Shown here piece after piece: positions 13,624 to 29,897 of a DNA stretch of 40,000 bases. The stretch is from Allochromatium vinosum DSM 180 (GTDB taxonomy: Bacteria > Pseudomonadota > Gammaproteobacteria > Chromatiales > Chromatiaceae). The position numbers and the translations under genes were made by a program. Location: contig NC_013851.1 in the NCBI RefSeq assembly GCF_000025485.1, forward strand, positions 743,154-783,153, in the 5' to 3' direction. The notes under the pieces are model-generated. The model worked only from the letters and a program-made list of their open reading frames with translations. It was not told the origin of the DNA and made no database searches. The stretch's first letter is position 1; each line of letters opens with the position of its first letter.

Positions 13624-16600
13624 CGGCTCGTCCCCGCGAGCGCGGGGAACGGGATTCCTGGATGAGCCTTGTTTCGGTCCCAATCGGTTCATCCCCGCGA
13701 GCGCGGGGAACGGTGGGCGTCGACGCGATCGCGCCATTCGGTGTCCGGTTCATCCCCGCGAGCGCGGGGAACGGCGCACCCAGCCGAGGATGTATCGAGA
13801 AAAATCCGGTTCATCCCCGCGAGCGCGGGGAACGGCGCCAAGCGCCCACGGTCGGCCACATCTGGAACGGTTCATCCCCGCGAGCGCGGGGAACGGGGAA
13901 CCAAGATCCTCCGTGACGCGGACCCCGAAGGTTCATCCCCGCGAGCGCGGGGAACGGCCGGCGCGGGACTCGGCTCCACATCGATGGGGCGGTTCATCCC
14001 CGCGAGCGCGGGGAACGGTCGGTGCTGGACTCGGGAATATTCAGCGCGGTCGGTTCATCCCCGCGAGCGCGGGGAACGGTGCAGAGCGGTCACTGATTCT
14101 GGAACAGAGGGCGGTTCATCCCCGCGAGCGCGGGGAACGGTTCAGCGCGGTCTTGAACGCCTCGAATGTGATCGGTTCATCCCCGCGAGCGCGGGGAACG
14201 GGTGTACACCACCTTTTCTAAGTAAAACAAGCACGGTTCATCCCCGCGAGCGCGGGGAACGGTATTGTCAGACCCATCAGAAATAGACCATAGCCGGTTC
14301 ATCCCCGCGAGCGCGGGGAACGGCTCGACAGCAAGCGCTTCCTCTTCCAGCAGGACGGTTCATCCCCGCGAGCGCGGGGAACGGGACGGCAGGATAGTAC
14401 GATGCGCGATTTCGTCCGGTTCATCCCCGCGAGCGCGGGGAACGGCTGTGATGCGTCGTTTTTTATTCCTGATTTTACGGTTCATCCCCGCGAGCGCGGG
14501 GAACGGAGGTCAGAGCCGCGCAGGGCCAAATACGCGCGCGGTTCATCCCCGCGAGCGCGGGGAACGGGCGGCATCGGTGCCGTAGCCGGCCTCCAGCGCC
14601 GGTTCATCCCCGCGAGCGCGGGGAACGGGACATCACGCCGCCGATCTGCGTGCCGTCGAGCGGTTCATCCCCGCGAGCGCGGGGAACGGGGTCTGACGAA
14701 TGGTTTGAGGCCCGCTGCGGACGGTTCATCCCCGCGAGCGCGGGGAACGGCGCGCCAATTTGCACCGCGCAACGCCGGACGCCGGTTCATCCCCGCGAGC
14801 GCGGGGAACGGCCCCTTACGCGGCTTGGACGTATCCTCACAGCCGGTTCATCCCCGCGAGCGCGGGGAACGGTTATAGCGCGATGTGGCTCCAACGGCAT
14901 CGAGCGGTTCATCCCCGCGAGCGCGGGGAACGGTCGGACTGGGATTTGGGGATAAGGTCAAGAGGCGGTTCATCCCCGCGAGCGCGGGGAACGGAAGAGC
15001 CAGAAATCAAGGCCTAAATGCCGGTGCGGTTCATCCCCGCGAGCGCGGGGAACGGCAACCTGCGTCTAATCCTGGAGAATGACCCCGCGGTTCATCCCCG
15101 CGAGCGCGGGGAACGGGCGCCCTGGCCCGATTCCGGAGCCAGGCACCGACGGTTCATCCCCGCGAGCGCGGGGAACGGGTCATGCGCCGTCGGCACAGAC
15201 GAGAACGCTACGGTTCATCCCCGCGAGCGCGGGGAACGGGCGAGCGGTGCGCGGGTGCCGGTCTTGGTCGCCGGTTCATCCCCGCGAGCGCGGGGAACGG
15301 CAACTCTACGTTTGCAATTCGATTGCGCAATTCGGTTCATCCCCGCGAGCGCGGGGAACGGTATCTGTGAGGCCACTAGTCAACGACTAATCGCGGTTCA
15401 TCCCCGCGAGCGCGGGGAACGGGAGGTATTCATTCATTTTTGAATCGATCTGACCGGTTCATCCCCGCGAGCGCGGGGAACGGTTTTCTCGCTCATTGGT
15501 CGCCTCGTGACGCATCGGTTCATCCCCGCGAGCGCGGGGAACGGTTGTTCGCGGCCCTGCTCAAGAATGCGGGCCACGGTTCATCCCCGCGAGCGCGGGG
15601 AACGGTCTACATCGCCATGAAGGGCGCTAACATCCTGCGGTTCATCCCCGCGAGCGCGGGGAACGGCCGGACATGGATTACAGCGCACGGCGCAGCCACG
15701 GTTCATCCCCGCGAGCGCGGGGAACGGAGCCGTCTGCTGGGCCTGGGCGGTCTCAGGGGCGGTTCATCCCCGCGAGCGCGGGGAACGGTGAGCGGGAAAT
15801 TGGGTCACGGTGTCGCCGGACGGTTCATCCCCGCGAGCGCGGGGAACGGATTCGCGATCGGGCGCAAGAGGAGGCTGAGACCGGTTCATCCCCGCGAGCG
15901 CGGGGAACGGGCCCCGGATCTGGCCATGCAGCCGTATGCCTACGGTTCATCCCCGCGAGCGCGGGGAACGGATCACCTGCTCGGGTTCTGCGATTCCCCC
16001 ACCCGGTTCATCCCCGCGAGCGCGGGGAACGGCAGCCGCCCGCCGAAGGATTGATACAGGATAACGGTTCATCCCCGCGAGCGCGGGGAACGGTCCTGTT
16101 CCTCGTGGCTGGCGATGGCTGTGGCCGGTTCATCCCCGCGAGCGCGGGGAACGGAACGCCCTACAGCTCGCGCGGCAGAACGAGATCGGTTCATCCCCGC
16201 GAGCGCGGGGAACGGGAGGCCCTGCCTGCGTATCACGGTGGGCAGGGCGGTTCATCCCCGCGAGCGCGGGGAACGGGTGCCTTCGCCCGTCCAGCCGGTC
16301 CAGCCATGCGGTTCATCCCCGCGAGCGCGGGGAACGGAGCCGGGATCTTGACACCGCATTTGAGCAGATCGGTTCATCCCCGCGAGCGCGGGGAACGGGC
16401 GATAAAGCGCTTGTTCGCGCTGTTCGATACCGGTTCATCCCCGCGAGCGCGGGGAACGGTCACCCTGCGCTTCCTGATCCTGGAGTAAGGCCGGTTCATC
16501 CCCGCGAGCGCGGGGAACGGACAAACGAGGGCGCGGATACCGACCGCTGGATCGGTTCATCCCCGCGAGCGCGGGGAACGGCCGGGTCTTCAAACGTAGT

Positions 16601-19206
16601 GGAGCCAATAACACGGTTCATCCCCGCGAGCGCGGGGAACGGTCAGCCATGTCGGTCGTCAGATCCTGCAAATTCGGTTCATCCCCGCGAGCGCGGGGAA
16701 CGGCCGGGTCTTCAAACGTAGTGGAGCCAATAACACGGTTCATCCCCGCGAGCGCGGGGAACGGGTATTTGATGCGGTCGAATACCTATTCAATAAAGGT
16801 TCATCCCCGCGAGCGCGGGGAACGGACCTCTGAGCCGGGGTTAATGGTGCTCATGGCCGGTTCATCCCCGCGAGCGCGGGGAACGGACGGCACGCAGCGA
16901 GACATCTGCCTCCAGCACCGGTTCATCCCCGCGAGCGCGGGGAACGGCGGTAGGTCTCGTCGTCGAGACCCAGATCCTTCGGTTCATCCCCGCGAGCGCG
17001 GGGAACGGCCACGTATAGGAAGCGCGAAAATCAGGGCGCGCGGTTCATCCCCGCGAGCGCGGGGAACGGATGTTCGTGGTTTAGTGGGTAGGCATATTCA
17101 CCGGTTCATCCCCGCGAGCGCGGGGAACGGACCGTGGATCCGGTCGGACGCTGGCGATAGACCGGTTCATCCCCGCGAGCGCGGGGAACGGCCGCCCAGA
17201 CCGTCCAGGAGGCTCCTGGCGGCCGGTTCATCCCCGCGAGCGCGGGGAACGGGCTGAATCCCCGGATGATGGGGCGCGGGTCGCCGGTTCATCCCCGCGA
17301 GCGCGGGGAACGGACGCCGAACGGCTCTGGGCGTGCTCGGGTCGCCGGTTCATCCCCGCGAGCGCGGGGAACGGTTCACCGGAATCGGGAAAACGTCGGG
17401 ATCGACCGGTTCATCCCCGCGAGCGCGGGGAACGGGATCAGAGTAATCATGCGAGTGACGCCAACCGCGGTTCATCCCCGCGAGCGCGGGGAACGGTGTC
17501 TTATATCTCTAATTCGCAGTCCATTATGCGGTTCATCCCCGCGAGCGCGGGGAACGGACTTTGATATCCTGTCTTTATCATTAAAGAACCGGTTCATCCC
17601 CGCGAGCGCGGGGAACGGACGGCACGCAGCGAGACATCTGCCTCCAGCACCGGTTCATCCCCGCGAGCGCGGGGAACGGCGAGGACTGCAAGTCCTGGCT
17701 GCGCTCGCCGACGGTTCATCCCCGCGAGCGCGGGGAACGGGCAAGGTCCAGAGCACGAAAGAAATTAGGCGGCGGTTCATCCCCGCGAGCGCGGGGAACG
17801 GGAAATCCATTTCGGGCGAATCCAACGGGGCGTCGGTTCATCCCCGCGAGCGCGGGGAACGGAGCGATTTTTTCGATTCACTGCCGACTGTTTACGGTTC
17901 ATCCCCGCGAGCGCGGGGAACGGGGCAGCGAGTTCCTCGACGAGATGGTGCGCACCGGTTCATCCCCGCGAGCGCGGGGAACGGAACAAGGCTGATGCGA
18001 CCCGCGCGAAAGCGTTCGGTTCATCCCCGCGAGCGCGGGGAACGGTCGAGCAACCGCAGCGCGTTCGGGAACTGCGTCGGTTCATCCCCGCGAGCGCGGG
18101 GAACGGGGTGGCGCTGCTGTGCTATGACGAGCTGACGCACGGTTCATCCCCGCGAGCGCGGGGAACGGTGTCATTCCTCCCGCCCGGCGCAGTCATAAAG
18201 CGGTTCATCCCCGCGAGCGCGGGGAACGGCGGAGCAAGGCCGCAGTAGCCGCGACGGCGAGCGGTTCATCCCCGCGAGCGCGGGGAACGGACCGAATCCC
18301 CGACGACCCCAGGATCCCAAGACGGTTCATCCCCGCGAGCGCGGGGAACGGCGGCTGTCATCGCATTTATGGGTCTCAAGCGGCGGTTCATCCCCGCGAG
18401 CGCGGGGAACGGGTACGGACGCAGCGACTCTTGGTGGCGCTGTGCGGTTCATCCCCGCGAGCGCGGGGAACGGTTGTATCTATCTGAGTAGGTGTTCCAA
18501 TGAACCGGTTCATCCCCGCGAGCGCGGGGAACGGCTGTCCTGATGTCGGCGACTCGGGACTCTGAACGGTTCATCCCCGCGAGCGCGGGGAACGGCTAAA
18601 AGCATCCCGAGGGAGCGTATAAGGCCGCGGTTCATCCCCGCGAGCGCGGGGAACGGAGCGTCAGCCGCTCCGCGATGGCTAGTCCAGGCGGTTCATCCCC
18701 GCGAGCGCGGGGAACGGGCGCCGGGCGTGCGATCGATCTCGTCAAATATCGGTTCATCCCCGCGAGCGCGGGGAACGGCTCCCCAAACCACCGCCAGAAG
18801 TTCCTCACCCCGGTTCATCCCCGCGAGCGCGGGGAACGGGCCAACAATCCAGCCACCATCACTAGCGCTCGCGGTTCATCCCCGCGAGCGCGGGGAACGG
18901 TTCCCAGGTTTGGCGTGTTTTTCCCTGGCTTTCGGTTCATCCCCGCGAGCGCGGGGAACGGGGGGCGGGCGTCTGTAGATTGGGCCGCGTCAGCGGTTCA
19001 TCCCCGCGAGCGCGGGGAACGGGTTTACCGACAAGCCCCCGGACATGCGAATCAACGGTTCATCCCCGCGAGCGCGGGGAACGGGCGTGTTTTTCCCCGG
19101 CTCTCTTCGGCGTGCACGGTTCATCCCCGCGAGCGCGGGGAACGGGGAGTTCTGCCAATAATTGTGGTGGAACCTGTCGGTTCATCCCCGCGAGCGCGGG
19201 GAACGG
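13624..19206 (-). CRISPR. Type I-E CRISPR array, 92 repeats / 91 spacers
   Basis: 29-bp repeat CGGTTCATCCCCGCGAGCGCGGGGAACGG on the plus strand. Its transcribed form CCGTTCCCCGCGCTCGCGGGGATGAACCG closely resembles the E. coli I-E repeat. 88 spacers of 32 nt and 3 of 33 nt. Degenerate terminal repeat at 13624-13652 (CGGCTCGTCC...). Leader and cas2 lie on the 19207 side, so transcription is on the minus strand. Confidence 0.98.
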
Positions 19207-19308
19207 ACTTCCCATACTTGCCTGATCTAGAAAAAGAAATCAGACGCTGAGAAATCTACCAACAAAATGCCTCTTTTCAAAGGGGCACGATTTTGATTGT
19301 CAAAGAAC
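19207..19308 (-). promoter_or_regulatory. CRISPR leader (AT-rich) with candidate promoter TTGAAA-16-TAGATT
   Basis: 102-bp AT-rich segment between the cas2 stop and the first repeat. Minus-strand TTGAAA (19275-19280) and TAGATT (19253-19258) are 16 nt apart. The promoter assignment is tentative. Confidence 0.6.
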
Positions 19309-20497
<1,189 letters not shown>

Positions 20498-20554
20498 GGC
20501 ATTCGGCCGTGTTGGTACCTCTCGCGTTATGGAGTAGCTCGACTGGAGAAAGGA

Positions 20555-20767
20555 TCAGGCCGCGATCTCGATGTAGTCGACCTGACTGGTCGGCGTTGGC
20601 ACCGGCAAGCCATCTTCTCGCAGACCTTCCAGATGAAACGCGATCGCTTCCCGAATCTCCCGCTCGGTCTCCTCCAGGGTGCGCCCGGTAGCGATGCACC
20701 CTGGCAGATCGGGGACATAGGCCGAGTAGTTATGCTCTGCTCGTTCGATCACGATGGCGTAACGCAT
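20555..20767 (-). CDS. hicB: HicB-family antitoxin-like protein (short form, no DNA-binding domain)
   Basis: 70 aa from ATG 20767. MRYAIVIERAEHNYSAYVPDLPGCIATGRTLEETEREIREAIAFHLEGL is the HicB/UPF0150 N-terminal fold pattern. Inserted between cas6e and cas1. Confidence 0.8.
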   Translation of the reverse strand: MRYAIVIERAEHNYSAYVPDLPGCIATGRTLEETEREIREAIAFHLEGLREDGLPVPTPTSQVDYIEIAA

Positions 20768-20778
20768 TGTCGCGGCCC

Positions 20779-20849
20779 TCATTTCCAACCGGCTTGTTTG
20801 TAATACTGCTCACCGTGCCTGGAGCCAAGTCGTCGCTCGACTTGCCCGG
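20779..20849 (-). pseudogene. HicA toxin C-terminal remnant (truncated and frameshifted)
   Basis: Directly after the cas6e stop, two frames together read PGKSSDDLAPGTVSS / YYKQAGWK*. This resembles the HicA C-terminus (..GKDLKPGTLRSILKQAGL). The stop is 11 nt before the hicB ATG. No N-terminal part exists. Confidence 0.45.
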
Positions 20850-21479
20850 TCATGAGGTAGCACGACGCACCAGCAGCAGTCCGCAGCCGAACGCCTTAGC
20901 GGGACCAAGGCCGTTTTCCAGTAATGCGACTAGCGCATTCGGATCAAGGACGGTCAAGAGACCCTCGAAGGTAGCGCACAGGATCTTTCCGCCTCGGTTG
21001 GCCTTACGAAAGTAGAGAGGCGGATGCGGTGTGACAGCGACAGCCTCGACTTCGGCGACATCCTTGAGCCGCTGTATCAGCCAGGATTTTTGGGTTTCCT
21101 CAGTGATCAGCGGAACACGGCAGGTATCGCGTGTCTTCCGTGGTTTGGTGTCTGCCTGTCGATCTTTGATGGTCTTGATCGGGTTCGCCGTCAGGATAAA
21201 GGCGAGCCGTTGGCCTTGCGAGGGTTGCGGGTTGATCTCTCGGCTACCGATGAGGTTCAGGGTGGCCTCGGGTTGTGGCATACACCTGGATTGAATCAGA
21301 ACCTGGGCCGGTCGGCCGGGCCGATGGTCCTCCACCCGGAACAGGAATCCCCGACGCGGCTGATCCGGCGTTCGGCGTGATTCCGCCGCTTCGCCGGGAA
21401 AGAGTCGCCATATGGCGCGGTGCATGTCATAGGGGTTGCGGGCCTCGGACCAAGGAATCTCAGCGCGACTCAGGATCAT
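20850..21479 (-). CDS. cas6e: Cas6e (CasE) crRNA endoribonuclease
   Basis: 209 aa. MILSRAEIPW..NPYDMHRAIWRLFP..FLFRVE..VLIQS and the C-terminal GPAKAFGCGLLLV are typical of Cas6e. ATGA overlap with cas5e. Confidence 0.92.
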   Translation of the reverse strand: MILSRAEIPWSEARNPYDMHRAIWRLFPGEAAESRRTPDQPRRGFLFRVEDHRPGRPAQVLIQSRCMPQPEATLNLIGSREINPQPSQGQRLAFILTANPIKTIKDRQADTKPRKTRDTCRVPLITEETQKSWLIQRLKDVAEVEAVAVTPHPPLYFRKANRGGKILCATFEGLLTVLDPNALVALLENGLGPAKAFGCGLLLVRRATS

Positions 21480-22159
21480 GAAGATTCCTCCTCGCGATGC
21501 AGATAGAGGCGGCGAGTAGCAAATTGGCGATGGCGACCGTAGCGGGGAACGTCGCGAATCCAGGTTGGTTGATCCGAGACGAGTTCGTCTTCGCTGTAGA
21601 TGAGTCCGCCATGGGGCGGAAACTGCGCTAATGCCGCTTTCGCGTCATCGGCTTCAATGCAATCCGGGCGTTCGAGCAGGGGGCGGCCCAGGGGGCAGGA
21701 GCGTCGTCCCAAAACGGGCGTGAAGCGCGGTTGCCGCAGAGATTCGGCGATCCGCGCCAGACTGAAACTTGCGTCTGGTCTGGAGCCGATAGCCACGGCG
21801 AAGGCGGCATCGAATAGATATTCCCTATGCGACTGGATCGGGAATTTATTCGTCGATCCGTCGACCTTCCGGGCATCGAGCACGGTGTGATAGTCAGACA
21901 GCTTGGTATGGCGCTTGGGCATCAGGCGATCGACGCCGGGACGCGGAGCGCCCGTGTCGAGGCGGACTGTGAATGCGACGCTCTCGGCGAGTGCATCGAG
22001 ACTCGGGGTGTCGGATCGGTCCAGCCCGAGACAGGCGCCCAGGAGTCCAAGCAGACCGCTACGGGTTGGAAACGGGTTGCTGGGACGATAGTCCTCGAAG
22101 GTGTGTGTGCCCCAAGCCTGCATGGGGCCATCGAGTCGAAGGATCAGGTAGCTCGGCAT
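21476..22159 (-). CDS. cas5e: Cas5e (CasD)
   Basis: Start at ATG 22159 gives MPSYLILRLDGPMQAWGTHTFEDYRPS..PTRSGLLGLLGACLG, the typical Cas5e N-terminus. Confidence 0.92.
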   Translation of the reverse strand: MPSYLILRLDGPMQAWGTHTFEDYRPSNPFPTRSGLLGLLGACLGLDRSDTPSLDALAESVAFTVRLDTGAPRPGVDRLMPKRHTKLSDYHTVLDARKVDGSTNKFPIQSHREYLFDAAFAVAIGSRPDASFSLARIAESLRQPRFTPVLGRRSCPLGRPLLERPDCIEADDAKAALAQFPPHGGLIYSEDELVSDQPTWIRDVPRYGRHRQFATRRLYLHREEESS

Positions 22160-22170
22160 GTCGGTACGCC

Positions 22171-23352
22171 TCACGCCCGACCATCGTTGGCAAGCCACTG
22201 TTCGAGGTCTGCGATCGAGGTCAGAACCTCTTGATCACCCAGCTTGATTCCTCCCCGGAGTGCAAAGGCGCGCGCCTGTTCGTCGAGTCCGTAGGCGCTG
22301 TTGACCCGTGACCAATAGTCGGCGAGCGCGGTGATGGATGGCTGGAGAAAACCTCCAATCTTGCGCTCACGTTCGATGGGTTCCTCGAAGGCGTTGGCAA
22401 GAGAGACGGGCTGATCGGCGAGGCTGACGATCACGAAGTCAGCCAGGTTGTGTGCCGCGAATGACTGCTGCTTGGCGGAAGGCACCACGGTGGCCAGCAG
22501 ATGCAAGACATGGCGAGCGATATCGAGCGCGCGCGCGCGCGACTCCGTCGTTTGCTCGGCATTTATGTTGGCCAGCAAGCCAAGATTAAACTGAAGCTGA
22601 CGCAGATTGAGGCTGGCATAGCGGTAGAAGACGCCCGCCGAGAATTGCTGGGTATTCAGGTGTCCGGCGCCGGTTTCGCCGGCATCCAGGGTCAGATCGT
22701 CGACAGCAGTGAACCAGTCGATGTCCTGAGGCTCCACCGTGTGGGTCGTGATGGCGTGAGCAACAGCGAGCGCCCCATCGACCGGATAGATGAGTTCGGA
22801 ATTGGCCATGCGTCCGGAGAGCGCGACATCCAGGTCGATGCGGGTGCGTTGCTCGCGCTCCAGACGCTGGATTTCGGCCTTCATGTACTCGATACGGCCT
22901 TTCTCCGGTTTGCCGGCGGCTTCGAGCAGGATCTGTTTGATTCCCTCGATTTCAGCGCAACTGAATGGAATGATCTGGGTTTCGATATGATCGCTTTTCT
23001 TGTCGCGTTCATACTTACCAATCTCGTCGATCTTGGTCTTTCCCTCGAAAATAGCCGCCGCATACAGCGCGCACTTCTCGATGGCCGTGGTCTGCTCAGC
23101 CGATTCGGCCGATGCGCTCAACTCGTCGGCCATTTTATCGAACAGCCGGCGCGTGCGCTGCGACTTACTAATAAAGTACCTGGCGTAATAGTCGCTATAT
23201 CTGATCGCGCGCTTGAGTGATTGACTGGAAATGCGCACCCGAGTCTTACCGCCGAAGATGGCGGTTTTCTGCATGTTCATGTCGTCCCGGTTGAGGCAGG
23301 ACGGACTGTGTGAAATGAGGACGTGGAAATTGACGAAATTCCTGGTGTTCAT
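22171..23352 (-). CDS. cas7e: Cas7e (CasC) Cascade backbone subunit
   Basis: 393 aa. FHVLISHSPSCLNRDDMNMQKTAIFGGKTRVRISSQSLKRAIR is almost identical in pattern to E. coli CasC. Confidence 0.96.
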   Translation of the reverse strand: MNTRNFVNFHVLISHSPSCLNRDDMNMQKTAIFGGKTRVRISSQSLKRAIRYSDYYARYFISKSQRTRRLFDKMADELSASAESAEQTTAIEKCALYAAAIFEGKTKIDEIGKYERDKKSDHIETQIIPFSCAEIEGIKQILLEAAGKPEKGRIEYMKAEIQRLEREQRTRIDLDVALSGRMANSELIYPVDGALAVAHAITTHTVEPQDIDWFTAVDDLTLDAGETGAGHLNTQQFSAGVFYRYASLNLRQLQFNLGLLANINAEQTTESRARALDIARHVLHLLATVVPSAKQQSFAAHNLADFVIVSLADQPVSLANAFEEPIERERKIGGFLQPSITALADYWSRVNSAYGLDEQARAFALRGGIKLGDQEVLTSIADLEQWLANDGRA

Positions 23353-23811
23353 TCACTTGTCTCCCTGGTCGATCTTGTGGAGGGCGATGTAGTAGCCTTC
23401 GACGAGGCGGCGTTTGCTGGATCCTGTCTTTTTACTGCCCCAGTACCAAAGGAGCGGAGCCAGATCTAGCCAGCCGACGGCTGGATGCAGTTGCATCACG
23501 AGCCGTCTCAAGGCGATGAGATCGTCCGGCGGATTGGCGCGGGCAATTTGCATGATCCGCTCTTCGGAAATGCTGTTGGCGCATAGAGTCATGAAGCCGG
23601 TGTTGCTGTTCAGTTCTGGGCACCAGGGCAGAAAAAACGCGAGCAGTGTTTCCTGATTCGAAGGTCTGCTTCCTGGAAACAGATGGTAGAGTCCAGGCAG
23701 ATCCCTCAAGTCGTCCGGCTCGGCGGCTCGGCGCAGTCCGGCCTTCGCTCCGTTGGGTAGCCGTTCGAAGCGAGCATGGTATTCGGCGAAATCCGGCGCT
23801 TCGGTGCTCAT
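23353..23811 (-). CDS. cse2: Cse2 (Cas11e, CasB) small subunit
   Basis: 152-aa ORF between cas8e and cas7e with Cse2-like size and basic helical composition. The ATG overlaps the cas8e C-terminal frame stop (ATGA). Confidence 0.85.
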   Translation of the reverse strand: MSTEAPDFAEYHARFERLPNGAKAGLRRAAEPDDLRDLPGLYHLFPGSRPSNQETLLAFFLPWCPELNSNTGFMTLCANSISEERIMQIARANPPDDLIALRRLVMQLHPAVGWLDLAPLLWYWGSKKTGSSKRRLVEGYYIALHKIDQGDK

Positions 23812-25330
23812 TGGCTCTCCTTGAGTTTCTTGAGATCAGCATTCAGGCTGCGGCGTGCCCAAGCGATGATTGGGATCAACTCAGGTTTCATTGTGTAAGG
23901 TTCGGTCATAGCATCGAAGATATCGCGGCAGTCAGCAGCAAGCGCATCGATATAAGCCGCGCGATTCTCTTTCCATTGCATGAACGTAGTCGGTCTGGAC
24001 AAAGTTTCAATGATTTTGCCTTCGGTCCGAGAGTAGAAGATTCGTTCTCCGACGTCCTGTATAGGAGATCCAATTCCTGGAAGCATTTTTTCTTATGCCC
24101 TTTGGACGCGAAAGAGAGCTTGTCCTTTAGACTCTCTTTGGCTTTTATGCCCAGCGCTACCAAATCTTTTAATCGACTGCCGTCTTCTTCGCTCCAGCCC
24201 GCTGCCAGAGAAAGCATCTCATGACGGCGCTCTGTGACCGATGCTTTGTTATTGCGGTAGCCGCCTATGATCAAAGTAAGTGGTTGGGGCTTTTCGAGCG
24301 CTGTTACTGCCATTGATTTAGCTTGAGCGACCGGAGTCGCTGGCCGACTGCCTTCTCCTTTCGGGCCATTGATGCGTAGGACCATCTCTGTGAGGCGTGT
24401 CCAGGCCGGAGCCTCTGTGGTGAAGGAGGCAAATTTCATCTCCAACGCACCCTTCTTGAGGCTCGACTGGAGTACGCCATGCGGATGCGGCCAAGTGCCT
24501 TCCAGCGTGAAGTTGAATTTCTCCTTCCGAAAGCCTGTGTAGAGCGGGCCAGCCTCAATGCCGAGCAGGTCGCAAGGTCCGGATTCGCGGCTACCAACCA
24601 GCTCGACATGGGCCGGCTGCCAGAACAGTCCGCGAGCGAGTCCGATTTGGTGAGCATGGATCGTCTCTTTTGACCGAATCGGTTCGATCCAGGTCGGCAG
24701 ATCCTGACTCAGGTCGTGCTGCCAATCCGGGAAATCCGTGCGGATGAACTCCGGGGTCAGCACATTGCACCAGATCCGTTTGCGCAGATTGCGGCCATCG
24801 ACGAGTGTCGTGATAGGAGCGATACCACGCAGACTGCCCTTAAAACCGCCGCCGAAGCTGGGGCAATTGGTCGCTTGATGGAAGAGCGCGATGGCGGCAA
24901 CCGGCGCTGAAAGCACCGAGACCTCACCAGGCGCGTTGAAAAAGGCATGATTGGTCCCCTCCGGCAGGCCGATCAGGAGTTTTTGGATGGGCGTGACGTC
25001 TTTGGCAACGACTCCGCGTGTTTGCATGAAAGGCTGCGTCGGGTGATCCAGGTCGAACCATTCCAGGCAGGGCGAAATGCCCTCGGTGAATTCGTCTGGT
25101 GTGAGCGGTATATCGATGCGGTCCAGCAGGACATCATCCTCCGGGGGCAGGAACATGATCTGCGTCATGCAGATCAGGAGTTGCAGACAGGCCAGTTCCA
25201 GGTCGTCTCGGGGAAGACTGATCTGCCAGTCTTCGTCTTCGCAGAGCAGTTCCTGATAGGTGAGCAACCGAAACGTGCCACTTCCGCCGTGGGCTCGCAC
25301 CGGGATCCAGGGTGTCTTCAACAGATCCAT
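23808..25330 (-). pseudogene. cas8e: Cas8e (Cse1, CasA) large subunit, reading frame broken at an A6 run
   Basis: N-terminal frame 25330->24092 (MDLLKTPWIPVRAHGG.., 421 good residues). The C-terminal 92 aa are in the -1 frame from 24086 to 23808 and are coupled to cse2. One extra A in the run at 24086-24091 would give about 513 aa. Confidence 0.85.
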
Positions 25331-25385
25331 AATCCTCATCCTGAACACGACTGGCGCCGCAGTTGGTGCAGACGCCTTGGTTTTT

Positions 25386-25535
25386 CTAGAGTCGAAGCAG
25401 GAACAGTGTTGCTATAAAGAACAGGAAAATCAGCAACATCAGCATCGCAATCAGTTTGAGTGCGACTATCCCATCCGGGCCCAGTTTGCCGAGTTCGACC
25501 ACCAGATCTTTCAAGGCTTTGATCGTCTCAAACAT
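25386..25535 (-). CDS. Hypothetical 49-aa tail-anchored hydrophobic peptide (candidate CRISPR-repressed toxin)
   Basis: ATG 25535 with GGAG 6 nt upstream. MFETIKALKDLVVELGKLGPDGIVALKLIAMLMLLIFLFFIATLFLLRL. About 25 hydrophobic C-terminal residues; AT-rich codons; first ORF downstream of the 25571-25598 promoter. Confidence 0.5.
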   Translation of the reverse strand: MFETIKALKDLVVELGKLGPDGIVALKLIAMLMLLIFLFFIATLFLLRL

Positions 25536-25570
25536 TCTGAGCTCCACCAAATCGAGTACGAATGTCGCTG

Positions 25571-25598
25571 AGTATAGTCGGCGCGTTTCAACTTGCAA
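25571..25598 (-). promoter_or_regulatory. Sigma-70-type promoter TTGCAA-16 nt-TATACT reading toward the small ORF and cas8e
   Basis: Minus strand -35 TTGCAA (25593-25598) and -10 TATACT (25571-25576). About 30 nt of 5' UTR with a GGAG SD follows. Confidence 0.55.
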
Positions 25599-25610
25599 GA
25601 GTTAAAGTGT
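25597..25610 (+). promoter_or_regulatory. Predicted Cascade binding site: AAG PAM + seed match to the mini-CRISPR pseudo-spacer
   Basis: AAG|AGTTAAAGTGT versus pseudo-spacer AGTTACAGTGT. 10/11 identical, the only mismatch at position 6. Overlaps the -35 hexamer of the minus-strand promoter. Confidence 0.6.
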
Positions 25611-25638
25611 TAATCTCATCGTGTGCTATTCTTTGACA

Positions 25639-25728
25639 GAATTCCCGGCTTAGCTTGGGATGACCCAAGTTACAGTGTCCTGTGACATCGAAATTGGGTT
25701 CGTTCCCCGCATTAGCGGGGTGCCTCCG
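25639..25728 (+). ncRNA. CreA/CreR-like mini-CRISPR (psiR1 - 32-nt pseudo-spacer - psiR2), inverted relative to the main array
   Basis: psiR1 25639-25667 is 16/29 identical to the repeat and psiR2 25700-25728 is 20/29 with an intact CCCCGC/GCGGGG stem. Exact 61-nt period. psiR2 overlaps the cas3 stop codon. Confidence 0.6.
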
Positions 25729-28345
25729 TCGGCGGGTCCATGAGGCCCGCCGTTTCTGCTTTGGCCAAGCCAAGCTCAGTCGTGTAGCAGACTCCTCCAT
25801 CAAGGCTACTCCAGCGTTGTTGGCCGTCGTCATGCATCTTGAGCCGAATGCGGCCATCCTCATCGCGGACGTGGCCCGCAAGCTGCCTGTCGCCCCAACT
25901 GTGCGGTGCGGGAACCGTGTTCAACATGAGCGTTTCAGCTTGGGTGTATTCGTCCATCTGGTCAGGATCTTCGCCGTCCAGCAGGCGACCATCCTCTCGA
26001 GTCAGCAGAACGGATAAGCTCATTTCGCCATCTCGTGTGAGCGAGGTCAGGCGCTCTTCGTCGTCGCGAAATTTGCTCAGGTTCATGGTCGTGAGACGAT
26101 GTGCTTTCTTTTCTGCCTCGCTTTGGTCGTCCCGCCACGCCAGATGTTTGCCATAGACGGTCCCAGGCTCATCATCCCAGGGAGCTTCTCCATAGACAGG
26201 CTCGATCCATTCCCGATAGGCTGCTGGAAAATGGATCTGCTTGTGCCGGGCCAGCAGGAACTCGGTTCGCCACAGCAGGCGTGCATCGCCGTAGATCAGT
26301 TCATGCAGACCGTAATCGTCCGTTTCGACCGACAGGACGGTGCAGGTGGGAACCTGGAAATCATCGGGACGTTTGCGCGAGTGTCTGTGCAAGCGTCCGA
26401 GACGCTGGAATAGGAGGTCGACCGGGCAGAGCTGAGTGATGAGCCAATCGAAGTCCAGATCGAGGCTCTGCTCGATGACCTGGGTCGCGACCAGGATGCG
26501 TCCTTGAGTCCGTTCGGCGTCACGTCCGTAGTGCTCGATCACCCGCTGCTCGATACGCTGTCGGTCCTGGAGCCTGAAGCGGGCATGGAAGAGATCGACG
26601 GGCACCTGGGCATTCTTGTGGAGCTGAATCCAGAGTTGCTGAGCATCGTCGACCGTGTTCATCACGATGCCAACCAGGGCACCGGATTCGGCTGCGTCGA
26701 TGATACGTTGGATGAGCGGCTCGTCGGGGCAAGCACCGCCCAGTTTGGAGAGGCTGACTTCGATGGTGCGTTGGGCCGGGCGCTCGGTGTCCGGCAAGCT
26801 CAAGGGTGAGTCGGATTCGGATAGCGCGGCCGTATTCCAGATGGCCGGATAATTGGCGACATCCGCGACTGGTTCGTGCCCCCATGATTCCAAAAGCTTG
26901 CCGCGAATGCTGGCGGGCAAGGTCGCCGACAGCAGGATGGCGCTTCCCCCAACCGCCTTCTGGCGCTTGAGCACCTCGATCAGCAGCCCATTCATGTAGG
27001 CATCATAGGCATGCACCTCGTCGACGATCAGAACGGAGCGGTGCAGCCCGAAAGCCCGGACGAAATTGTGTCTGACCGGCAGGACGGACAGCAAGACCTG
27101 ATCGACCGTGCAGACGCCGATCTGTCCCAGGAAGACACGCTTGCGGCTGCTGGCCAGCCAGGCGGCACACTGGACGCCGGCCTCGGTCTCGCCCTGAGCC
27201 GTGCGTTTGGATCCGGCCTCGATAAGCCGTTGGTACGCCTGATTCAGCCGACTATGCCCATGAGCCAGAACCAGATTCGCGCGACCAAAGGCGCTCTTGG
27301 AGAAGGTTTCACAACGTCCAAGCATCGCGTTTGCCGTGGCCTGAGTGGGAAGCGCGAAGACGATCGACTCGGCCAGTCCGGCATCGATCAGGCGCCAGGC
27401 GTAGGCCAATGCCGCTTCGGTCTTGCCGCTGCCCGTGGGAGCTTCAACGATCGTCAGTCCTGGAACAAGCGGCAGATCGTCGATCATGACCTGAGTGCCG
27501 CGCGGATGCTCGTCGGTTTTGAGCAGAGCCGGGATTCCCTGATAGGCCAGCGGCGTGGCGATCAGCCCGAAGTGCCTCAAGATATCGTCGCGTCTGATCT
27601 GCTCCAAGCGTGAATGCAAATAGTCGTTTGGAGAGAGTGCAGGCGGGGCGTAGGCAAAGACGTCGACATTGGAGCCTATCCAGTCGCACAGACTACAGAA
27701 TCCCGCCAGCAGGTTTCGGGCTTCGGTTACGCATGGCGGTGGTGGATCTTCGAGGCTCAACCCAGCCGGGTGGAGGAAGAGATCGGCCGCTTCCTGGATC
27801 CATGCACGGCGCGCATTGGCGTCTTGCTCCAATATAGTCGCTTCGGCATAAGCAGGAAGAGGATCGTCGTTATCCGGGATCTCTCCGTGATGCCCCGTCA
27901 CGGCGGCAAGCCACGAGGACCAAGCTTTCAATGCGTGACGGCTTGCGGGTTTGAACCAACCGCGAAGCTCGGCCATCGACAGACGGTATCCTTCACGGCC
28001 ATGATCGTAGTGTCCGCCCGAGGTATCGATCAGCTTCGTCGAGGCTAGATCGGGCCAGATCTGAGGCAGGATATGGGGGGCTTTGATCTGAAACAGCGCG
28101 TGCAGCTTTCCGATGTCATGGAGTGCGACGAAAAACAGGATCCACGCCAGAAGCCGCTGAATTTCCGCCTCTTCCACGTCAAAGGCAGCCATGAGAGTAC
28201 GGCGGACTGCCGACGAATCTCGCCAAAACGTTGCTGCAATTACTGCTGCATCGAGGGAATGGTAAGCGAAGGGATGCCATTTGTTGGCCCCTTCGACTCC
28301 CGTATCTGCCTTCGCCCAATAACGCCAATAGTCCTTGGATAACAT
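25712..28345 (-). CDS. cas3: Cas3 HD nuclease / SF2 helicase (I-E)
   Basis: Start at ATG 28345 (GGAG 7 nt upstream). HD region ..HPFAYHSLDAA..ALHDIGK.., helicase motifs APTGSGKTEAAL and DEVHAYD, C-terminal domain. 877 aa. Confidence 0.95.
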   Translation of the reverse strand: MLSKDYWRYWAKADTGVEGANKWHPFAYHSLDAAVIAATFWRDSSAVRRTLMAAFDVEEAEIQRLLAWILFFVALHDIGKLHALFQIKAPHILPQIWPDLASTKLIDTSGGHYDHGREGYRLSMAELRGWFKPASRHALKAWSSWLAAVTGHHGEIPDNDDPLPAYAEATILEQDANARRAWIQEAADLFLHPAGLSLEDPPPPCVTEARNLLAGFCSLCDWIGSNVDVFAYAPPALSPNDYLHSRLEQIRRDDILRHFGLIATPLAYQGIPALLKTDEHPRGTQVMIDDLPLVPGLTIVEAPTGSGKTEAALAYAWRLIDAGLAESIVFALPTQATANAMLGRCETFSKSAFGRANLVLAHGHSRLNQAYQRLIEAGSKRTAQGETEAGVQCAAWLASSRKRVFLGQIGVCTVDQVLLSVLPVRHNFVRAFGLHRSVLIVDEVHAYDAYMNGLLIEVLKRQKAVGGSAILLSATLPASIRGKLLESWGHEPVADVANYPAIWNTAALSESDSPLSLPDTERPAQRTIEVSLSKLGGACPDEPLIQRIIDAAESGALVGIVMNTVDDAQQLWIQLHKNAQVPVDLFHARFRLQDRQRIEQRVIEHYGRDAERTQGRILVATQVIEQSLDLDFDWLITQLCPVDLLFQRLGRLHRHSRKRPDDFQVPTCTVLSVETDDYGLHELIYGDARLLWRTEFLLARHKQIHFPAAYREWIEPVYGEAPWDDEPGTVYGKHLAWRDDQSEAEKKAHRLTTMNLSKFRDDEERLTSLTRDGEMSLSVLLTREDGRLLDGEDPDQMDEYTQAETLMLNTVPAPHSWGDRQLAGHVRDEDGRIRLKMHDDGQQRWSSLDGGVCYTTELGLAKAETAGLMDPPTEAPR
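25730..25762 (+). terminator. Candidate intrinsic terminator for the plus-strand mini-CRISPR transcript (antisense, inside the cas3 3' end)
   Basis: 7-bp GC stem CGGCGGG / CCCGCCG (25730-25736 / 25746-25752) followed by TTTCTGCTTT (25753-25762). Confidence 0.45.
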
Positions 28346-28651
28346 GACGGGACTCCGCTTTTCCGTGTCATCAGGAGTCCTGATCATAGACGAAGTGACG
28401 GGCGTTCCGCCAAACCTGGGATGGCGTATTTCGTGTATTGTTTGGGCTTTGTCGCCGTTAGAGTGAAGATGGGCAGTCGGTCAAGGCGCGCTTGATATCG
28501 ATGGATTGTCAGCCGGACGCCCGACTCCTACACTGTGACGCATTCGTGACCCTTCCTGCCTCCGTGCCGAGGCCATGGTTTCTGTCGCGCCTCCCTCACC
28601 GTCGGCCCGACCGGGCCGCAGATCAACCCTCAACGATCAAAACGATCAACC

Positions 28652-29500
28652 ATGAACCCTCATCATCCGATCGGCGTCTTCGATTCAGGCCTGGGCGGAC
28701 TGACCGTACTGCGCGAGATCCGCCGCCTGCTGCCGGGCGAAGATCTGCTCTATGTGGCCGACTCGGCCCACGCGCCCTATGGCGACAAGTCCATGGCCTT
28801 CATCGAGTCGCGCTCCATCGCCATCACCGAATTCCTGCTCGAACGCGGCGCCAAGGCGATCGTGGTGGCCTGCAACACCGCCACCGGCGCCGCCGCGAAG
28901 CTGTTGCGCACTCAGTACAATGTCCCCCTGATCGCCATGGAGCCGGCCGTCAAGCCGGCGGTCGAACGCACGCGTTCGGGCGTGGTGGCGGTGCTGGCCA
29001 CGCGCCGGACGCTGGCCAGTCACAACTTCTCGGTGCTGCTCGGGCGGCTCGAAACCGACGCCGAGATCCTGTTGCAACCCTGTCCGGGGCTGGTCGAGCG
29101 GGTCGAGGCTGGTGATCTGGCAGGGGAGGGGACACGCGAACTGCTGCGCGGTTATCTGGAACCGTTGCTCGCGCGCGGGGCCGATACCCTGGTCCTGGGC
29201 TGCACCCACTATCCGCTGCTGACCCCCTTGATCCAGGAACTGGCCGGACCGGACGTGCTCATTCTGGACTCGGGCATCGGGGTCGCGCGTCAGGTGCGCC
29301 GCCGACTGAGCGAAGCCGAGCTACTGGCCCCGGAAGAGCGGACCGGACGCGAGCGCTTCTGGACCAGCGCGCCCCCGGCCAGGATGCACGCCCTCATGGC
29401 ACGGCTCTGGGCGGGAGAGGTCGAACTCGCGCGCTGGGTCGAGTCGGAGGCCGAGGATGACCGGAGATCCCCCGGCGATCTGGCGCTGGAGCCGACCTGA
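28652..29500 (+). CDS. murI: Glutamate racemase
   Basis: IGVFDSGLGGLTVLREI, VVACNTATG and LGCTHYPLL are the MurI signature blocks with both catalytic Cys. Confidence 0.93.
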   Translation: MNPHHPIGVFDSGLGGLTVLREIRRLLPGEDLLYVADSAHAPYGDKSMAFIESRSIAITEFLLERGAKAIVVACNTATGAAAKLLRTQYNVPLIAMEPAVKPAVERTRSGVVAVLATRRTLASHNFSVLLGRLETDAEILLQPCPGLVERVEAGDLAGEGTRELLRGYLEPLLARGADTLVLGCTHYPLLTPLIQELAGPDVLILDSGIGVARQVRRRLSEAELLAPEERTGRERFWTSAPPARMHALMARLWAGEVELARWVESEAEDDRRSPGDLALEPT

Positions 29501-29528: not shown

Positions 29529-29897
29529 TCACTCCGCGCTTCGCTCGTTCCGCTCGTTCCGCTCGTTCCGCTCGTTCCGCTCGTTCCGCTCGTTCCGCTC
29601 GGCCGGAATGAGTGTCGGGACACGCGGATCGATCCCCTCCAGCATGAACACGAACGCCAGCACCTCGGCGACGGCCACATAGAGCGCGCGCGGGATCTCA
29701 GCCCCGAGCGGGATCTGCGCCAGAGCCTCCACGAGCACCGGATCGGCGCGCAGCGGGATGTCGTGCTCCTCGGCGATCTTGAGGATCTGTTCGGCGGTCA
29801 GGCCGGTTCCGGTGGCTGTGATGCGGGGAGCGTGTTCGCGGTCCCAGTGGAGCGCGACCGCCTTGGTGGTCTTGGGACGTTGAGGGGGGGCGCTCAC
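29529..29897 (-). CDS. FlhB C-terminal-domain-like protein (EscU/YscU/HrcU family, stand-alone short form)
   Basis: 122 aa. AVALHWDREHAPRITATGTGLTAEQILKIAEEHDIPLRADPVLVEAL..IPRALYVAVAEVLAFV, then a C-terminal (NER)n tail. Overlaps the fliK stop. Confidence 0.8.
   Translation of the reverse strand: MSAPPQRPKTTKAVALHWDREHAPRITATGTGLTAEQILKIAEEHDIPLRADPVLVEALAQIPLGAEIPRALYVAVAEVLAFVFMLEGIDPRVPTLIPAERNERNERNERNERNERNERSAE
29543..29601. repeat. 9-bp tandem repeat GCTCGTTCC x 6.5, in frame in the flhB-like gene
   Basis: Six perfect consecutive copies from 29543 to 29596 plus a partial copy. Encodes NERNERNERNERNERNER on the minus strand. Confidence 0.95.

Follow-up and report, generated by a model that had tools for sequence, protein, structure and literature searches.

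Between cas3 and cas8e of Allochromatium vinosum DSM 180, an 11-nt sequence preceded by AAG repeats the start of a spacer-like sequence encoded in the same gap and lies on a promoter that faces a small ORF and the Cascade genes, raising the question of whether Cascade is directed to this site as a repressor of its own operon. We analysed the site within the whole 40,000 nt stretch in which it occurs (hereafter the window; features are listed in Table 1). The locus belongs to type I-E, with Pfam hits for all eight cas genes and an array of period 61 with 29-nt repeats and 32-nt spacers. The start of cas8e is most likely ATG 25330, which gives the N-terminus MDLLKTPW as in relatives, rather than the GTG of the mechanically called ORF. 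Our reading, which we hold with considerable though not complete confidence, is that the cas3-cas8e gap is a module of the CreA/CreR type, in which Cascade loaded with a mini-guide would repress the small ORF and the Cascade operon, the peptide being a likely toxin.

Table 1. Coordinates of the features of the cas3-cas8e gap and the adjoining type I-E locus in the window.
Feature	Position	Strand	Basis or remark
PAM AAG of regulatory target	25597..25599	+	read from sequence
Seed target AGTTAAAGTGT	25600..25610	+	equals positions 1-5 and 7-11 of the pseudo-spacer (AGTTACAGTGT)
-35 hexamer TTGCAA of small-ORF/cascade promoter	25593..25598	-	promoter scan
-10 hexamer TATACT	25571..25576	-	16 nt past the -35; promoter scan
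Small ORF, 49 codons + stop (MFETIKALKDLVVELGKLGPDGIVALKLIAMLMLLIFLFFIATLFLLRL)	25386..25535	-	SD GGAG 25545-25542
Extended -10 TGcTATTCT of mini-array promoter, predicted	25624..25632	+	from sequence; start expected near 25639
psiR1, degenerate repeat, 16/29 identical to array repeat	25639..25667	+	weak hairpin; conserved 3′ GGGATGACCCA
Pseudo-spacer, 32 nt, AGTTACAGTGTCCTGTGACATCGAAATTGGGT	25668..25699	+	alignment to target
psiR2, repeat-like (20/29), intact CCCCGC-ATTA-GCGGGG hairpin, degenerate 3′ end	25700..25728	+	
Terminator-like hairpin and T-rich tail of mini-array transcript	25730..25762	+	predicted
cas3	25712..28387	-	Pfam Cas3_HD, DEAD, Cas3-like_C_2; convergent with mini-array
cas8e (cse1), first Cascade gene 3′ of small ORF	23808..25330	-	Pfam PF09481
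cse2, cas7, cas5, cas6e, cas1, cas2 (remaining operon fed by the regulated promoter)	19309..23811	-	Pfam
Type I-E CRISPR array, 91 exact repeat cores (crRNA strand CCGTTCCCCGCGCTCGCGGGGATGAACCG)	13686..19207	-	

On re-reading the sequence, the coordinates that the earlier note had given for the site, the promoter and the ORF were all right. The plus strand reads AAGAGTTAAAGTGT at 25597-25610, and the 10/11 seed match claimed after the AAG is present, with position 6 (A in the target, C in the pseudo-spacer) as the sole disagreement within positions 1-11. The similarity does end after position 11, beyond which identity falls to 1/21 positions. The bases at positions 6, 12 and 18 are those flipped out by Cascade. 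The view that such a match is too specific for chance also stood, as the 40-kb window holds a single AAG+AGTTANAGTGT and 0/100 shuffles contained any match; the shorter PAM+8 pattern AWGAGTTANAG likewise has a single occurrence in the window. That the remnant of a decayed array resembles an AT-rich promoter by chance might be entertained given a match of merely 10 bases plus a PAM in a gap of 47% GC, against 63% for the window, but it is effectively refuted by the shuffles together with the comparative data presented below, in which the relationship recurs with different sequences in each related mini-array locus, and its probability is negligible.

A search for sigma70-like promoters across 25200-25900 returned one promoter-like hit, with 0.1 expected, and this was the minus-strand TTGCAA-16 nt-TATACT on whose -35 the site had been said to lie. 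On the operon strand the PAM is CTT, its TT forming bases 1-2 of the -35, and downstream of the promoter come GGAG (25545-25542, minus strand) and then the ATG (25535) of the 49-codon ORF. The gap therefore displays PAM-flanked partial seed complementarity within a promoter (AAG, positions 1-5 and 7-11, over the -35), which is one of the defining marks of CreA and CreR guides.

The source of the putative guide looks, from its sequence, like a complete transcription unit. The pseudo-spacer is directly preceded by the 8-nt handle-like ATGACCCA, comparable to the array repeat 3′ end ATGAACCG, and the 3′ end of psiR1 (GGGATGACCCA) is the predicted source of the 8-nt 5′ handle; psiR2 overlaps the cas3 stop codon (25712-25714), and the terminator-like hairpin falls within the 3′ end of cas3 on the opposite strand. 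As in CreA/CreR mini-arrays, the psiR1 handle and psiR2 hairpin are kept, and this architecture was likewise found in 17 related loci. There the psiR1 hairpin is kept with differing stem sequences in all 17, psiR2 hairpins are also kept, and a strong hairpin follows psiR2 in 16/17, several with a T6 run. The psiR1 hairpin of the window is poor (-7 kcal/mol, with G-U pairs), which makes Cas6e processing at the 5′ side uncertain. The extended -10 GTGCTATTCT is common to three relatives (L001, L006 and L008), located 6-7 nt 5′ of psiR1, and a -10-like hexamer is found 7-12 nt 5′ of psiR1 in most related loci. An array-strand promoter was called by the scanning tool in L034; the same scan called none in the window, where the promoter is weak by consensus. 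TTGACA (25633-25638) was considered as the mini-array -35 and rejected in favour of the extended -10 TGcTATTCT conserved in relatives, because the -10 belonging to it would fall inside psiR1 and is poor. No Rfam family matched the cas3-cas8e gap at gathering thresholds.

The pairing between guide and target was then compared across 20 related type I-E loci, representing approximately 17 distinct spacer/target pairs. Gaps were searched for AAG plus 10/10 identity, position 6 being free, between any two 11-mers, and for the last four loci to be included (L038-L041) either AAG or ATG was accepted, with at most one mismatch. The earlier note had named, as grounds for abandoning the idea, a match that is missing where related loci keep the mini-array; we found that every cas3-cas8e gap with a mini-array contains a single site that is flanked by AAG and agrees with the first bases of the pseudo-spacer in that gap. 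Loci satisfying the strict search gave exactly one pair each; without exception it was located on the array strand and its second 11-mer began directly after a ATGAACCG-like handle. One extra mismatch was needed in five pairs from six loci (L011, L023/L036, L032, L038 and L039), while L040 and L041 gave exact AAG matches. AAG stands 5′ of the seed-matching site in 20/20 loci, in a search that itself demanded AAG (or ATG for L038-L041).

The seeds themselves differ from locus to locus and change on both sides, from AGTTACAGTGT/AGTTAAAGTGT (spacer/target) in the window to AGTTGTGATGT/AGTTGAGATGT in Imhoffiella purpurea, where positions 5, 7 and 8 are altered in both spacer and target, TAATTAACTGT on both sides in L003 and TAGGTCAAGGT/TAGGTTAAGGT in L012. 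The pseudo-spacer is identical in L001 and L006, and other loci have a different sequence in the same place. At 97% Cas8e identity, L001 has G at target position 6, with the PAM and the other 10 bases unaltered. Over the 20 loci the co-variation score was 0.751, compared with 0.222±0.025 for shuffled pairs (0/500 reached it) and 0.09-0.17 when the partner was slid, a statistic with a circular component, since identity at positions 1-5 and 7-11 was itself the criterion by which targets were picked out. The search set no condition on position 6 or on positions from 12 onward. In 14 distinct loci the matches at positions 1-11 numbered 13, 14, 14, 14, 14, 1, 14, 13, 14, 14 and 13, those at positions 12-18 numbered 1, 10, 8, 8, 6, 4 and 1, and thereafter there were approximately 3 per position. 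The mismatches at 6, 12 and 18 are, as the aligned pairs indicate, the 6-nt periodicity of Cascade, and spacer and target co-vary as in the CreA/CreR class. The promoter follows the same pattern: most loci have CTTGnnn-16/18-TAnnnT on the operon strand, the PAM sharing two bases with the -35, and the promoter scan called this overlapping -35 in L012, L003 and L034, while it was recognised by eye in most others.

These comparative data strongly support the proposal of the earlier note that the mini-crRNA turns Cascade into a repressor of the small ORF, of the Cascade operon, or of both, a circuit that would operate as follows. The plus-strand gene, comprising the extended -10, psiR1, pseudo-spacer, psiR2 and terminator hairpin, would yield a crRNA-like RNA; after trimming by Cas6e this would consist of the 8-nt handle (AUGACCCA) followed by the pseudo-spacer and the psiR2 hairpin, and Cascade assembly would take place around it. 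This complex is predicted to recognise the AAG at 25597-25599 and to pair with minus-strand bases 25600-25610 through positions 1-5 and 7-11 of the spacer, base 6 being flipped out; since pairing ends at position 11, no full R-loop would form and Cas3 would not be licensed. Bound Cascade would occupy the -35 TTGCAA of a minus-strand promoter that is expected to drive the 49-codon ORF and, there being no terminator between, cas8e through cas2, resulting in negative feedback on Cascade. The mini-guide would face competition from the crRNAs of the large array, and whenever Cascade became scarce, inhibited or titrated by the approximately 90 array crRNAs, the promoter would open and more Cascade and more peptide would be made. 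That a partial match may mean binding without cutting, as had been argued by analogy, is backed by published work on I-E Cascade, for which a 5 bp seed plus AAG is enough for binding in vivo and more than 18 bp is needed for interference (PMC5904413). In E. coli, such short-seed off-target binding had no measurable effect on transcription (PMC5904413), so repression through 10 bp must depend on exact placement on the -35.

An improbable alternative is guide-RNA homeostasis, in which the site acts chiefly on the divergent promoter of the mini-array itself and not on the cas operon. The stretch in which the plus-strand -35 and -10 must fall is covered by the 32-bp protospacer-equivalent (25600-25631), and in L034 the tool placed the array-strand -35 inside this segment. 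Yet the feature conserved across loci is the overlap of PAM and -35 on the operon-strand promoter, pairing is limited to the 11 PAM-proximal bases, and in L009 and L011 the target is located approximately 130 nt away from the mini-array. Control of the guide promoter and control of the operon are not mutually exclusive roles.

The ORF that operon control would also silence is, from its pattern of sequence change, a real gene. Differences at its three codon positions number 335/220/671, third positions being the most variable, and its transmembrane part has 231 synonymous versus 113 non-synonymous differences. The AF2 model of the 49-aa peptide (pLDDT 90.5) places helices at residues 2-16 and 20-48, and a Kyte-Doolittle hydropathy of 3.05 over residues 29-47 indicates a single TM helix, so that the product is modelled as an amphipathic helix joined through a kink to a transmembrane helix. 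Homologues from related loci form 42 clusters in all, making this a rare, unannotated family of 41-50 aa with a helix-kink-transmembrane plan, which appears undescribed within the searchable literature and family libraries. An exhaustive HMM search of 1.84 billion representatives retrieved only 26 short proteins and no fusion proteins hinting at function, and a metagenome scan with a four-sequence peptide alignment found one locus only. Pfam, NCBIfam, PADLOC and PHROG gave no match at curated cut-offs, only chance-level matches (E approximately 0.02-8), and neither the 49-aa nor the 42-aa form had a KilAC or other Pfam hit above chance. The chance-level library matches included PsbH and Firmicu-CTERM. 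No peptide relative was found among IMG/VR viral contigs, and tblastn against PLSDB plasmids gave no hit; nothing thus points to a phage or a plasmid as the source of the peptide.

The distribution of the ORF bears on what it does. It lies 3′ of the mini-array and target in 13/13 distinct ORF-bearing loci with a readable upstream region, and as in CreTA and CrePA the gene is directly under the promoter targeted by the guide, with promoter, SD and ORF laid out in that order in 13 distinct loci. Among the loci examined, none had the ORF without the mini-array and target, and none had it without Cascade genes; the entire module is located upstream of cas3 in L039, and the spacer, psiR1, promoter and ORF are all deleted together in L004. 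By analogy with CreT and CreP, the peptide is most likely a dose-dependent toxin repressed by Cascade. Type I toxin-antitoxin peptides (Hok, TisB, Fst) are short, hydrophobic and single-TM, and their output is restrained by a small RNA. The peptide resembles them in form and in its proposed small-RNA control, and differs in that theirs is antisense pairing to mRNA, whereas here control would be transcriptional, via Cascade; it showed no family match to the known type I toxin peptides (Hok, Ldr, TisB, Fst and others in Pfam).

The principal rival, to which we assign a substantial but clearly minor share of the probability, is pure CreR autoregulation with a benign peptide, which might be anchored in the membrane as a partner of Cascade or Cas8e, or might come from a leader ORF coupled to cas8e translation. 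Where the peptide is 41-43 aa long, its stop codon runs into or adjoins the cas8e start and the cas8e SD GGAGG is encoded by the Gly-Gly codons of the peptide; this arrangement implies that Cas8e is never produced without the peptide, an unusual property in a toxin. The long forms (the window and L005) are uncoupled, ending at least 55 nt from cas8e. The TM sequence VLALLVALSAIWVLGGK is very highly conserved in loci whose Cas8e is only approximately 57-61% identical to the reference P0001, suggesting a specific interaction and not generic membrane damage. The ORF has also been lost repeatedly with the mini-array retained (absent from L003, L008 and L011; interrupted by a stop codon in L010). 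Against this, the ORF never occurs alone in the loci examined and moves with the mini-array and target in L039, an asymmetric dependence of the kind that a toxin/antitoxin pair predicts, and the nearest experimentally studied analogue, that of C. rodentium, is a translated toxin. With somewhat less than even confidence, we propose that the family is a type I-E-specific effector new to the literature, acting in Cascade feedback and coupled in translation to cas8e in its short forms (a repressed toxin or, more unusually, a membrane partner of Cascade), or else that one Cascade occludes two back-to-back promoters. As a new family of Cascade-repressed toxins it would kill or arrest the cell upon Cascade inhibition; a single Cascade bound over the guide and operon promoters would make a compact homeostat.

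Whether the circuit still operates in this strain depends on cas8e, which carries a 1-nt deletion in an A-run near 24091 that places its last approximately 90 codons out of frame. By alignment the run is A6 in the window and A7 in the close relatives L001 and L006, and tblastn of cas8e splits into two frames. The frameshift, if real, would mean that Cascade cannot recognise the PAM and that the circuit is dead in this strain, leaving a relic whose site is kept by descent and no longer bound. We regard this as unlikely: homopolymer indels are a common assembly error, the remaining parts of the module, from ORF, SD and promoter to PAM, seed, handle and hairpins, are intact and near-identical to those of A. 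humboldtianum, whose cas8e is intact, and the 91-repeat array has uniform repeats. The ORF is intact beside the frameshifted gene, which is either a consequence of sequencing error or evidence against strong addiction; a real frameshift would argue against a strongly lethal toxin and count in favour of the benign peptide.

The mechanism class is not new, such circuits having already been described for type I-E, and the locus is a clean natural example of Cascade serving as a transcription factor. New for type I-E in the searchable literature are the conserved unannotated peptide family, confined to loci with mini-arrays among those examined, the recurrent fusion of AAG and -35 (cTTGnnn) in most loci, and the co-variation record of the guide-target duplex. 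This record, with pairing at 1-5, 7-11 and partly 13-16 and mismatches at 6, 12 and 18, shows the small extent of pairing on which natural regulatory targets rely and the point at which it stops. Should the peptide prove toxic, its clade would hold the first I-E CreT family of any breadth, and a possible source of parts for Cascade-dependent kill switches or screens for anti-CRISPR proteins.

Among known systems, the founding case is the I-B CreTA of Haloarcula hispanica (Li et al. 2021, Science), in which a crRNA-like antitoxin reportedly guides Cascade to the toxin promoter through partial complementarity, as proposed here, and the cell is addicted to Cascade; that system is archaeal, and where the window is predicted to encode a membrane peptide, its toxin is reported to be an RNA by which a rare tRNA is sequestered. 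The I-F CrePA of Acinetobacter baylyi similarly encodes, between cas3 and csy1, a protein toxin that CreA and the effector complex repress, and differs in its CC PAM, 19-nt match and 103-aa KilAC toxin that blocks cell division (bioRxiv 10.1101/2024.01.05.574328). Within type I-E, mini-arrays are present in approximately 19% of bacterial loci (Shmakov et al. 2023, PMC10120712). These and the Salmonella CreR are degenerate two-repeat mini-CRISPRs between cas3 and casA/cas8e, antisense to cas3 (bioRxiv 10.1101/2023.03.10.532045; PMC10120712), and they share with the window the retained psiR1 handle and psiR2 hairpin, the AAG and the partial seed match at the cas8e promoter; they serve Cascade autorepression, the role proposed here on sequence grounds. 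A GFP reporter was used to validate the S. enterica CreR, whose target has an AAG PAM and 15 consecutive matches approximately 140 bp upstream of casA, with no associated ORF (bioRxiv 10.1101/2023.03.10.532045), whereas the window has 5+5 matches, a PAM fused to the -35 and, between promoter and cas8e, a conserved peptide gene. Closest by layout is the I-E CreTA of C. rodentium, which has cas3, an opposite-strand CreA, a PAM-flanked partial target in the promoter, an RBS with a small ORF, and casA, and in which the Cascade genes, but not cas3, are needed to silence the translated ORF (Nat Microbiol 2025, PMC12055562). Compared in this way, by layout and not by sequence, its ORF is 96 bp (31 codons), its PAM is ATG and its target lies on an UP element (PMC12055562), whereas the ORF here has 49 codons and a clear TM helix, and the PAM is AAG over the -35; toxicity was shown experimentally there (PMC12055562), and a toxin role here is suggested by analogy. 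The I-E mini-arrays of Salmonella and E. coli and the C. rodentium CreTA together make up the class into which the module of the window fits.

The window encodes a complete type I-E system on its minus strand (cas3, cas8e, cse2, cas7, cas5, cas6e, cas1 and cas2, by Pfam). The gap between cas3 and cas8e has a GC content of 47%, compared with 63% for the whole window, and carries a degenerate two-repeat mini-CRISPR (the mini-array). An earlier note had claimed an AAG-flanked match to the start of the pseudo-spacer at a promoter in this gap, and the site was found exactly as claimed: AGTTAAAGTGT is identical to spacer positions 1-5 and 7-11, similarity ends after position 11 (1 of 21 further positions identical), and the overlapping minus-strand promoter, TTGCAA-16 nt-TATACT, was the sole promoter-like match returned by the promoter tool in 25200-25900. 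The AAG-plus-AGTTAAAGTGT match occurs once in the 40 kb and was produced by none of 100 shuffles. Downstream of the promoter lie GGAG, an ATG at 25535 and a 49-codon ORF (the small ORF); cas8e starts at 25330, 55 nt past this ORF, with no terminator predicted in the interval.

Coordinates of features in the window (L numbers denote locus records of related type I-E systems)
Feature	Position	Strand	Remarks
DDE_5 transposase gene	9285-10901	plus	
Element holding the 522-aa ORF	11221-12858	minus	RRXRR and HNH domains
HEARO RNA (Rfam RF02033)	12620-12858	minus	106.5 bits; overlaps start of 522-aa ORF
Short ORF	12802-13518	minus	TonB-dependent receptor Plug domain only
CRISPR array	13686-19207		91 repeat cores; crRNA strand CCGTTCCCCGCGCTCGCGGGGATGAACCG; after cas2
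Small ORF	25386-25535	minus	49 codons
AAG plus target	25597-25610	plus	
Predicted extended -10 of mini-array	25624-25632	plus	TGcTATTCT; also in L001, L006, L008
psiR1	25639-25667	plus	repeat identity 16/29; GGGATGACCCA kept
Pseudo-spacer	25668-25699	plus	32 nt
psiR2	25700-25728	plus	repeat identity 20/29; hairpin intact, 3' end degenerate
Terminator-like hairpin	25730-25752	plus	T-rich tail to 25762
cas3	25712-28387	minus	Pfam
Racemase-like ORF	28652-29500		
Tandem repeat CGCTCGTTC	29542-29601		9 bp, perfect, 6.7 copies, 100% identity

Cas8e homologues placed the locus among the Chromatiaceae: the cluster representative P0001 shares 97% identity with the window Cas8e and 99% with the Cas8e of Allochromatium humboldtianum (L006), whose cas8e is about 95% identical to the window gene at the DNA level, and the window protein shares 79% identity with its Imhoffiella purpurea counterpart. 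We assembled 41 locus records from a genome scan and from look-ups of Cas8e and of the peptide. Thirteen of the 23 genome-scan loci leave no room between cas3 and cas8e because the genes overlap by 14 nt, and a mini-array occupies the opposite strand of every gap longer than about 230 nt. A search blind to the repeats scanned both strands of each gap for an AAG-preceded 11-mer that recurs unchanged elsewhere in the gap, position 6 being left free; for L038-L041 it also allowed ATG in place of AAG and at most one mismatch, with exact AAG matches still present in L040 and L041. This search returned exactly one pair per scoring locus. Without exception the pair lay on the array strand and its second copy started directly after a ATGAACCG-like handle. 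One extra mismatch yielded five further pairs with the same relationship in six loci (L011, L023/L036, L032, L038 and L039).

Seeds vary among loci, spacer and target altering together. The window seed AGTTACAGTGT is shared by L001 (97% Cas8e identity), whose target AGTTAGAGTGT has position 6 as its sole change even as the flanks past position 11 have diverged, with indels. Positions 5, 7 and 8 are compensated in I. purpurea (seed AGTTGTGATGT, target AGTTGAGATGT), both copies read TAATTAACTGT in L003, and L012 pairs seed TAGGTCAAGGT with target TAGGTTAAGGT. Guide and target were identical in 13, 14, 14, 14 and 14 of 14 distinct loci at positions 1-5, 1 at position 6, 14, 13, 14, 14 and 13 at positions 7-11, 1 at position 12, 10, 8, 8, 6 and 4 at positions 13-17, 1 at position 18 and about 3 of 14 beyond; with the duplex written as a helix and pairs counted over 20 loci, the co-variation score was 0.751 versus 0.222±0.025 in shuffles (0 of 500 reached it) and 0.09-0.17 with the partner slid, position 6 being unpaired in 16 and position 12 in 17 of the 20. 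These numbers are partly circular, since AAG and identity at 1-5 and 7-11 were the search criteria. Four features lay outside those criteria: that each gap gives a single hit, that the spacer copy sits at a fixed place behind the handle, that the target is found at the promoter, and how positions 6 and 12-18 behave. The 6-nt periodicity of the mismatches corresponds to the established geometry of Cascade, which flips out one base in six (PMC5904413).

Guide and target agree in only 3 of 42 comparisons across the 14 distinct loci at the three flipped-out positions (6, 12 and 18; 25605, 25611 and 25617 in the window), fewer than the 25% expected under neutrality, and 11 of the 14 targets carry A at position 6. 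At E. coli off-target Cascade binding sites position 6 is matched above chance (PMC5904413). The low identity could reflect selection against pairing or a UP-element constraint of the promoter.

The operon strand in most loci reads CTTGnnn-16/18 nt-TAnnnT, so that the PAM complement CTT shares TT with the -35; besides the window promoter, the tool independently called TTGATA-16-TACAAT in L012, TTGACA-16-TAGAAT in L003 and TTGAGT-18-TATCAT in L034. Exceptions are L011, L038 and L040 (PAM 3-12 nt upstream of the -35), L032 (-10 seemingly covered by the target) and I. purpurea, where the target falls between the -35 and -10 of the tool-preferred promoter. The target lies inside or beside the core promoter in all cases.

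The conserved structures of the mini-array are those of an RNA gene. Across 17 loci psiR1 always forms a hairpin (weak in the window) whose stem sequences vary and whose 3' side stays GGGATGAACCG-like; the canonical hairpin CCCC(G/A)C-N4-G(C/T)GGGG is retained in psiR2, and a strong hairpin, often with a T-run, follows it in 16 of the 17. A -10-like hexamer lies 7-12 nt upstream of psiR1 in most loci, and we infer a putative mini-array promoter at TGcTATTCT, the promoter tool having called no plus-strand promoter for the mini-array in the window. We also observed that psiR2 covers the cas3 stop codon and that the terminator hairpin falls within the final cas3 codons (TAGLMDPP; 25700-25762 against a cas3 3' end of 25712-25790). 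The two genes are convergent and overlapping, as in most relatives, so that read-through of either would be antisense to the other.

The small ORF is, from its substitution pattern, a real gene: eight short-form homologues differ 335/220/671 times by codon position, with 231 synonymous versus 113 non-synonymous codon differences in the transmembrane part. The family (consensus MVEVIKAIKELVSEVGKvGPtGvAVLALlVALSAIWVLGGK) is rare, with 42 clusters among 5.8 billion sequences; an exhaustive HMM search of 1.84 billion gave 26 representatives, all of 35-70 aa and none a fusion. The peptide matched no family in Pfam, NCBIfam, PADLOC or PHROGs, and no relatives were found in IMG/VR or PLSDB. An AlphaFold model (pLDDT 90.5) has helices at 2-16 (amphipathic) and 20-48 with a break at GKLGP, and hydropathy reaches 3.05 over residues 29-47. 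In the 41-43 aa forms (L012, L032, L034, L038 and L040) the stop codon either overlaps the start codon of cas8e or directly adjoins it, and the conserved Gly-Gly encodes the cas8e Shine-Dalgarno GGAGG, an arrangement that implies translational coupling to cas8e, whereas the 49-aa form of the window lies 55 nt away.

A mini-array and AAG target lie upstream of the ORF in 13 of 13 distinct ORF-bearing loci with a readable upstream region; a fourteenth, L016, has its contig end before the mini-array position. Mini-array and target persist with the ORF absent in L003, L008 and L011, interrupted by an in-frame stop in L010 and reduced to a remnant in L009. In L004 (83% Cas8e identity) a single deletion has removed the ORF together with both promoters, psiR1 and the spacer, leaving a 76-bp cas3-cas8e gap (3925-4001); all that survives of the module is the final ORF bases, GCTTTAG, and a remnant of psiR2 within cas3. 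This one-way dependence of ORF on mini-array is what a regulator-guarded toxin would predict, although toxicity is not thereby proven. In the metagenomic L039, one of the 13 ORF-bearing loci, cas3 overlaps cas8e and the module lies instead at 2400-2750, between a WYL-domain regulator gene and cas3, with all its parts: terminator, psiR2, spacer, psiR1, an AAG target on the -35 (TTGACT) and the small ORF; this displaced but complete copy indicates that the module moves as a unit.

The analysis shows the anatomy, conservation, co-variation and coding status; the mechanism is proposed from established I-E biology and published analogues: mini-array RNA would be processed by Cas6e and loaded into Cascade, which would bind PAM and seed without licensing Cas3 and occlude the -35 of the small ORF/cas promoter. 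A 5 bp seed with AAG is enough for Cascade to bind in vivo, and interference or priming takes >18 bp; the same study saw no transcriptional effect at short-seed off-targets (PMC5904413), so effective repression here must rest on exact placement, and perhaps also on high guide abundance. About 19% of bacterial I-E loci carry a mini-array between cas3 and cas8 that is transcribed opposite to cas3 and has an AAG-flanked partial target at the promoter of cas8 (PMC10120712). The regulatory RNA CreR of S. enterica I-E is reporter-validated and responds to crRNA load and AcrIE8 (10.1101/2023.03.10.532045), C. rodentium I-E CreTA includes a translated ORF of 96 bp at the place of the small ORF (PMC12055562), and a protein toxin, CreP, is known in type I-F. 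The regulatory class is already established and the window locus is a further member. The literature searched gave no description of this peptide family; what is new is the family itself, the fusion of PAM and -35, and the periodic footprint of mismatches.

Near 24091, cas8e lacks one base of an A-run (A6, versus A7 in L001 and A. humboldtianum). This 1-nt deletion places the last ~90 codons (residues from about 413) in another frame, ending at the cse2 start (23811). Either the assembly is wrong here or cas8e was recently inactivated; if the deletion is real, the circuit is inactive in A. vinosum DSM 180, and the intact small ORF beside it counts against a strongly lethal toxin.

Elsewhere in the window, the 522-aa ORF encodes an IscB-type OMEGA nuclease and the HEARO RNA is its guide RNA; the pair lies just past the trailer end of the CRISPR array and is flanked by the DDE_5 transposase gene and the Plug-domain ORF, which suggests that insertion-disrupted sequence adjoins the array. 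The CGCTCGTTC tandem repeat lies just downstream of the racemase-like ORF and upstream of a fliK-like gene.
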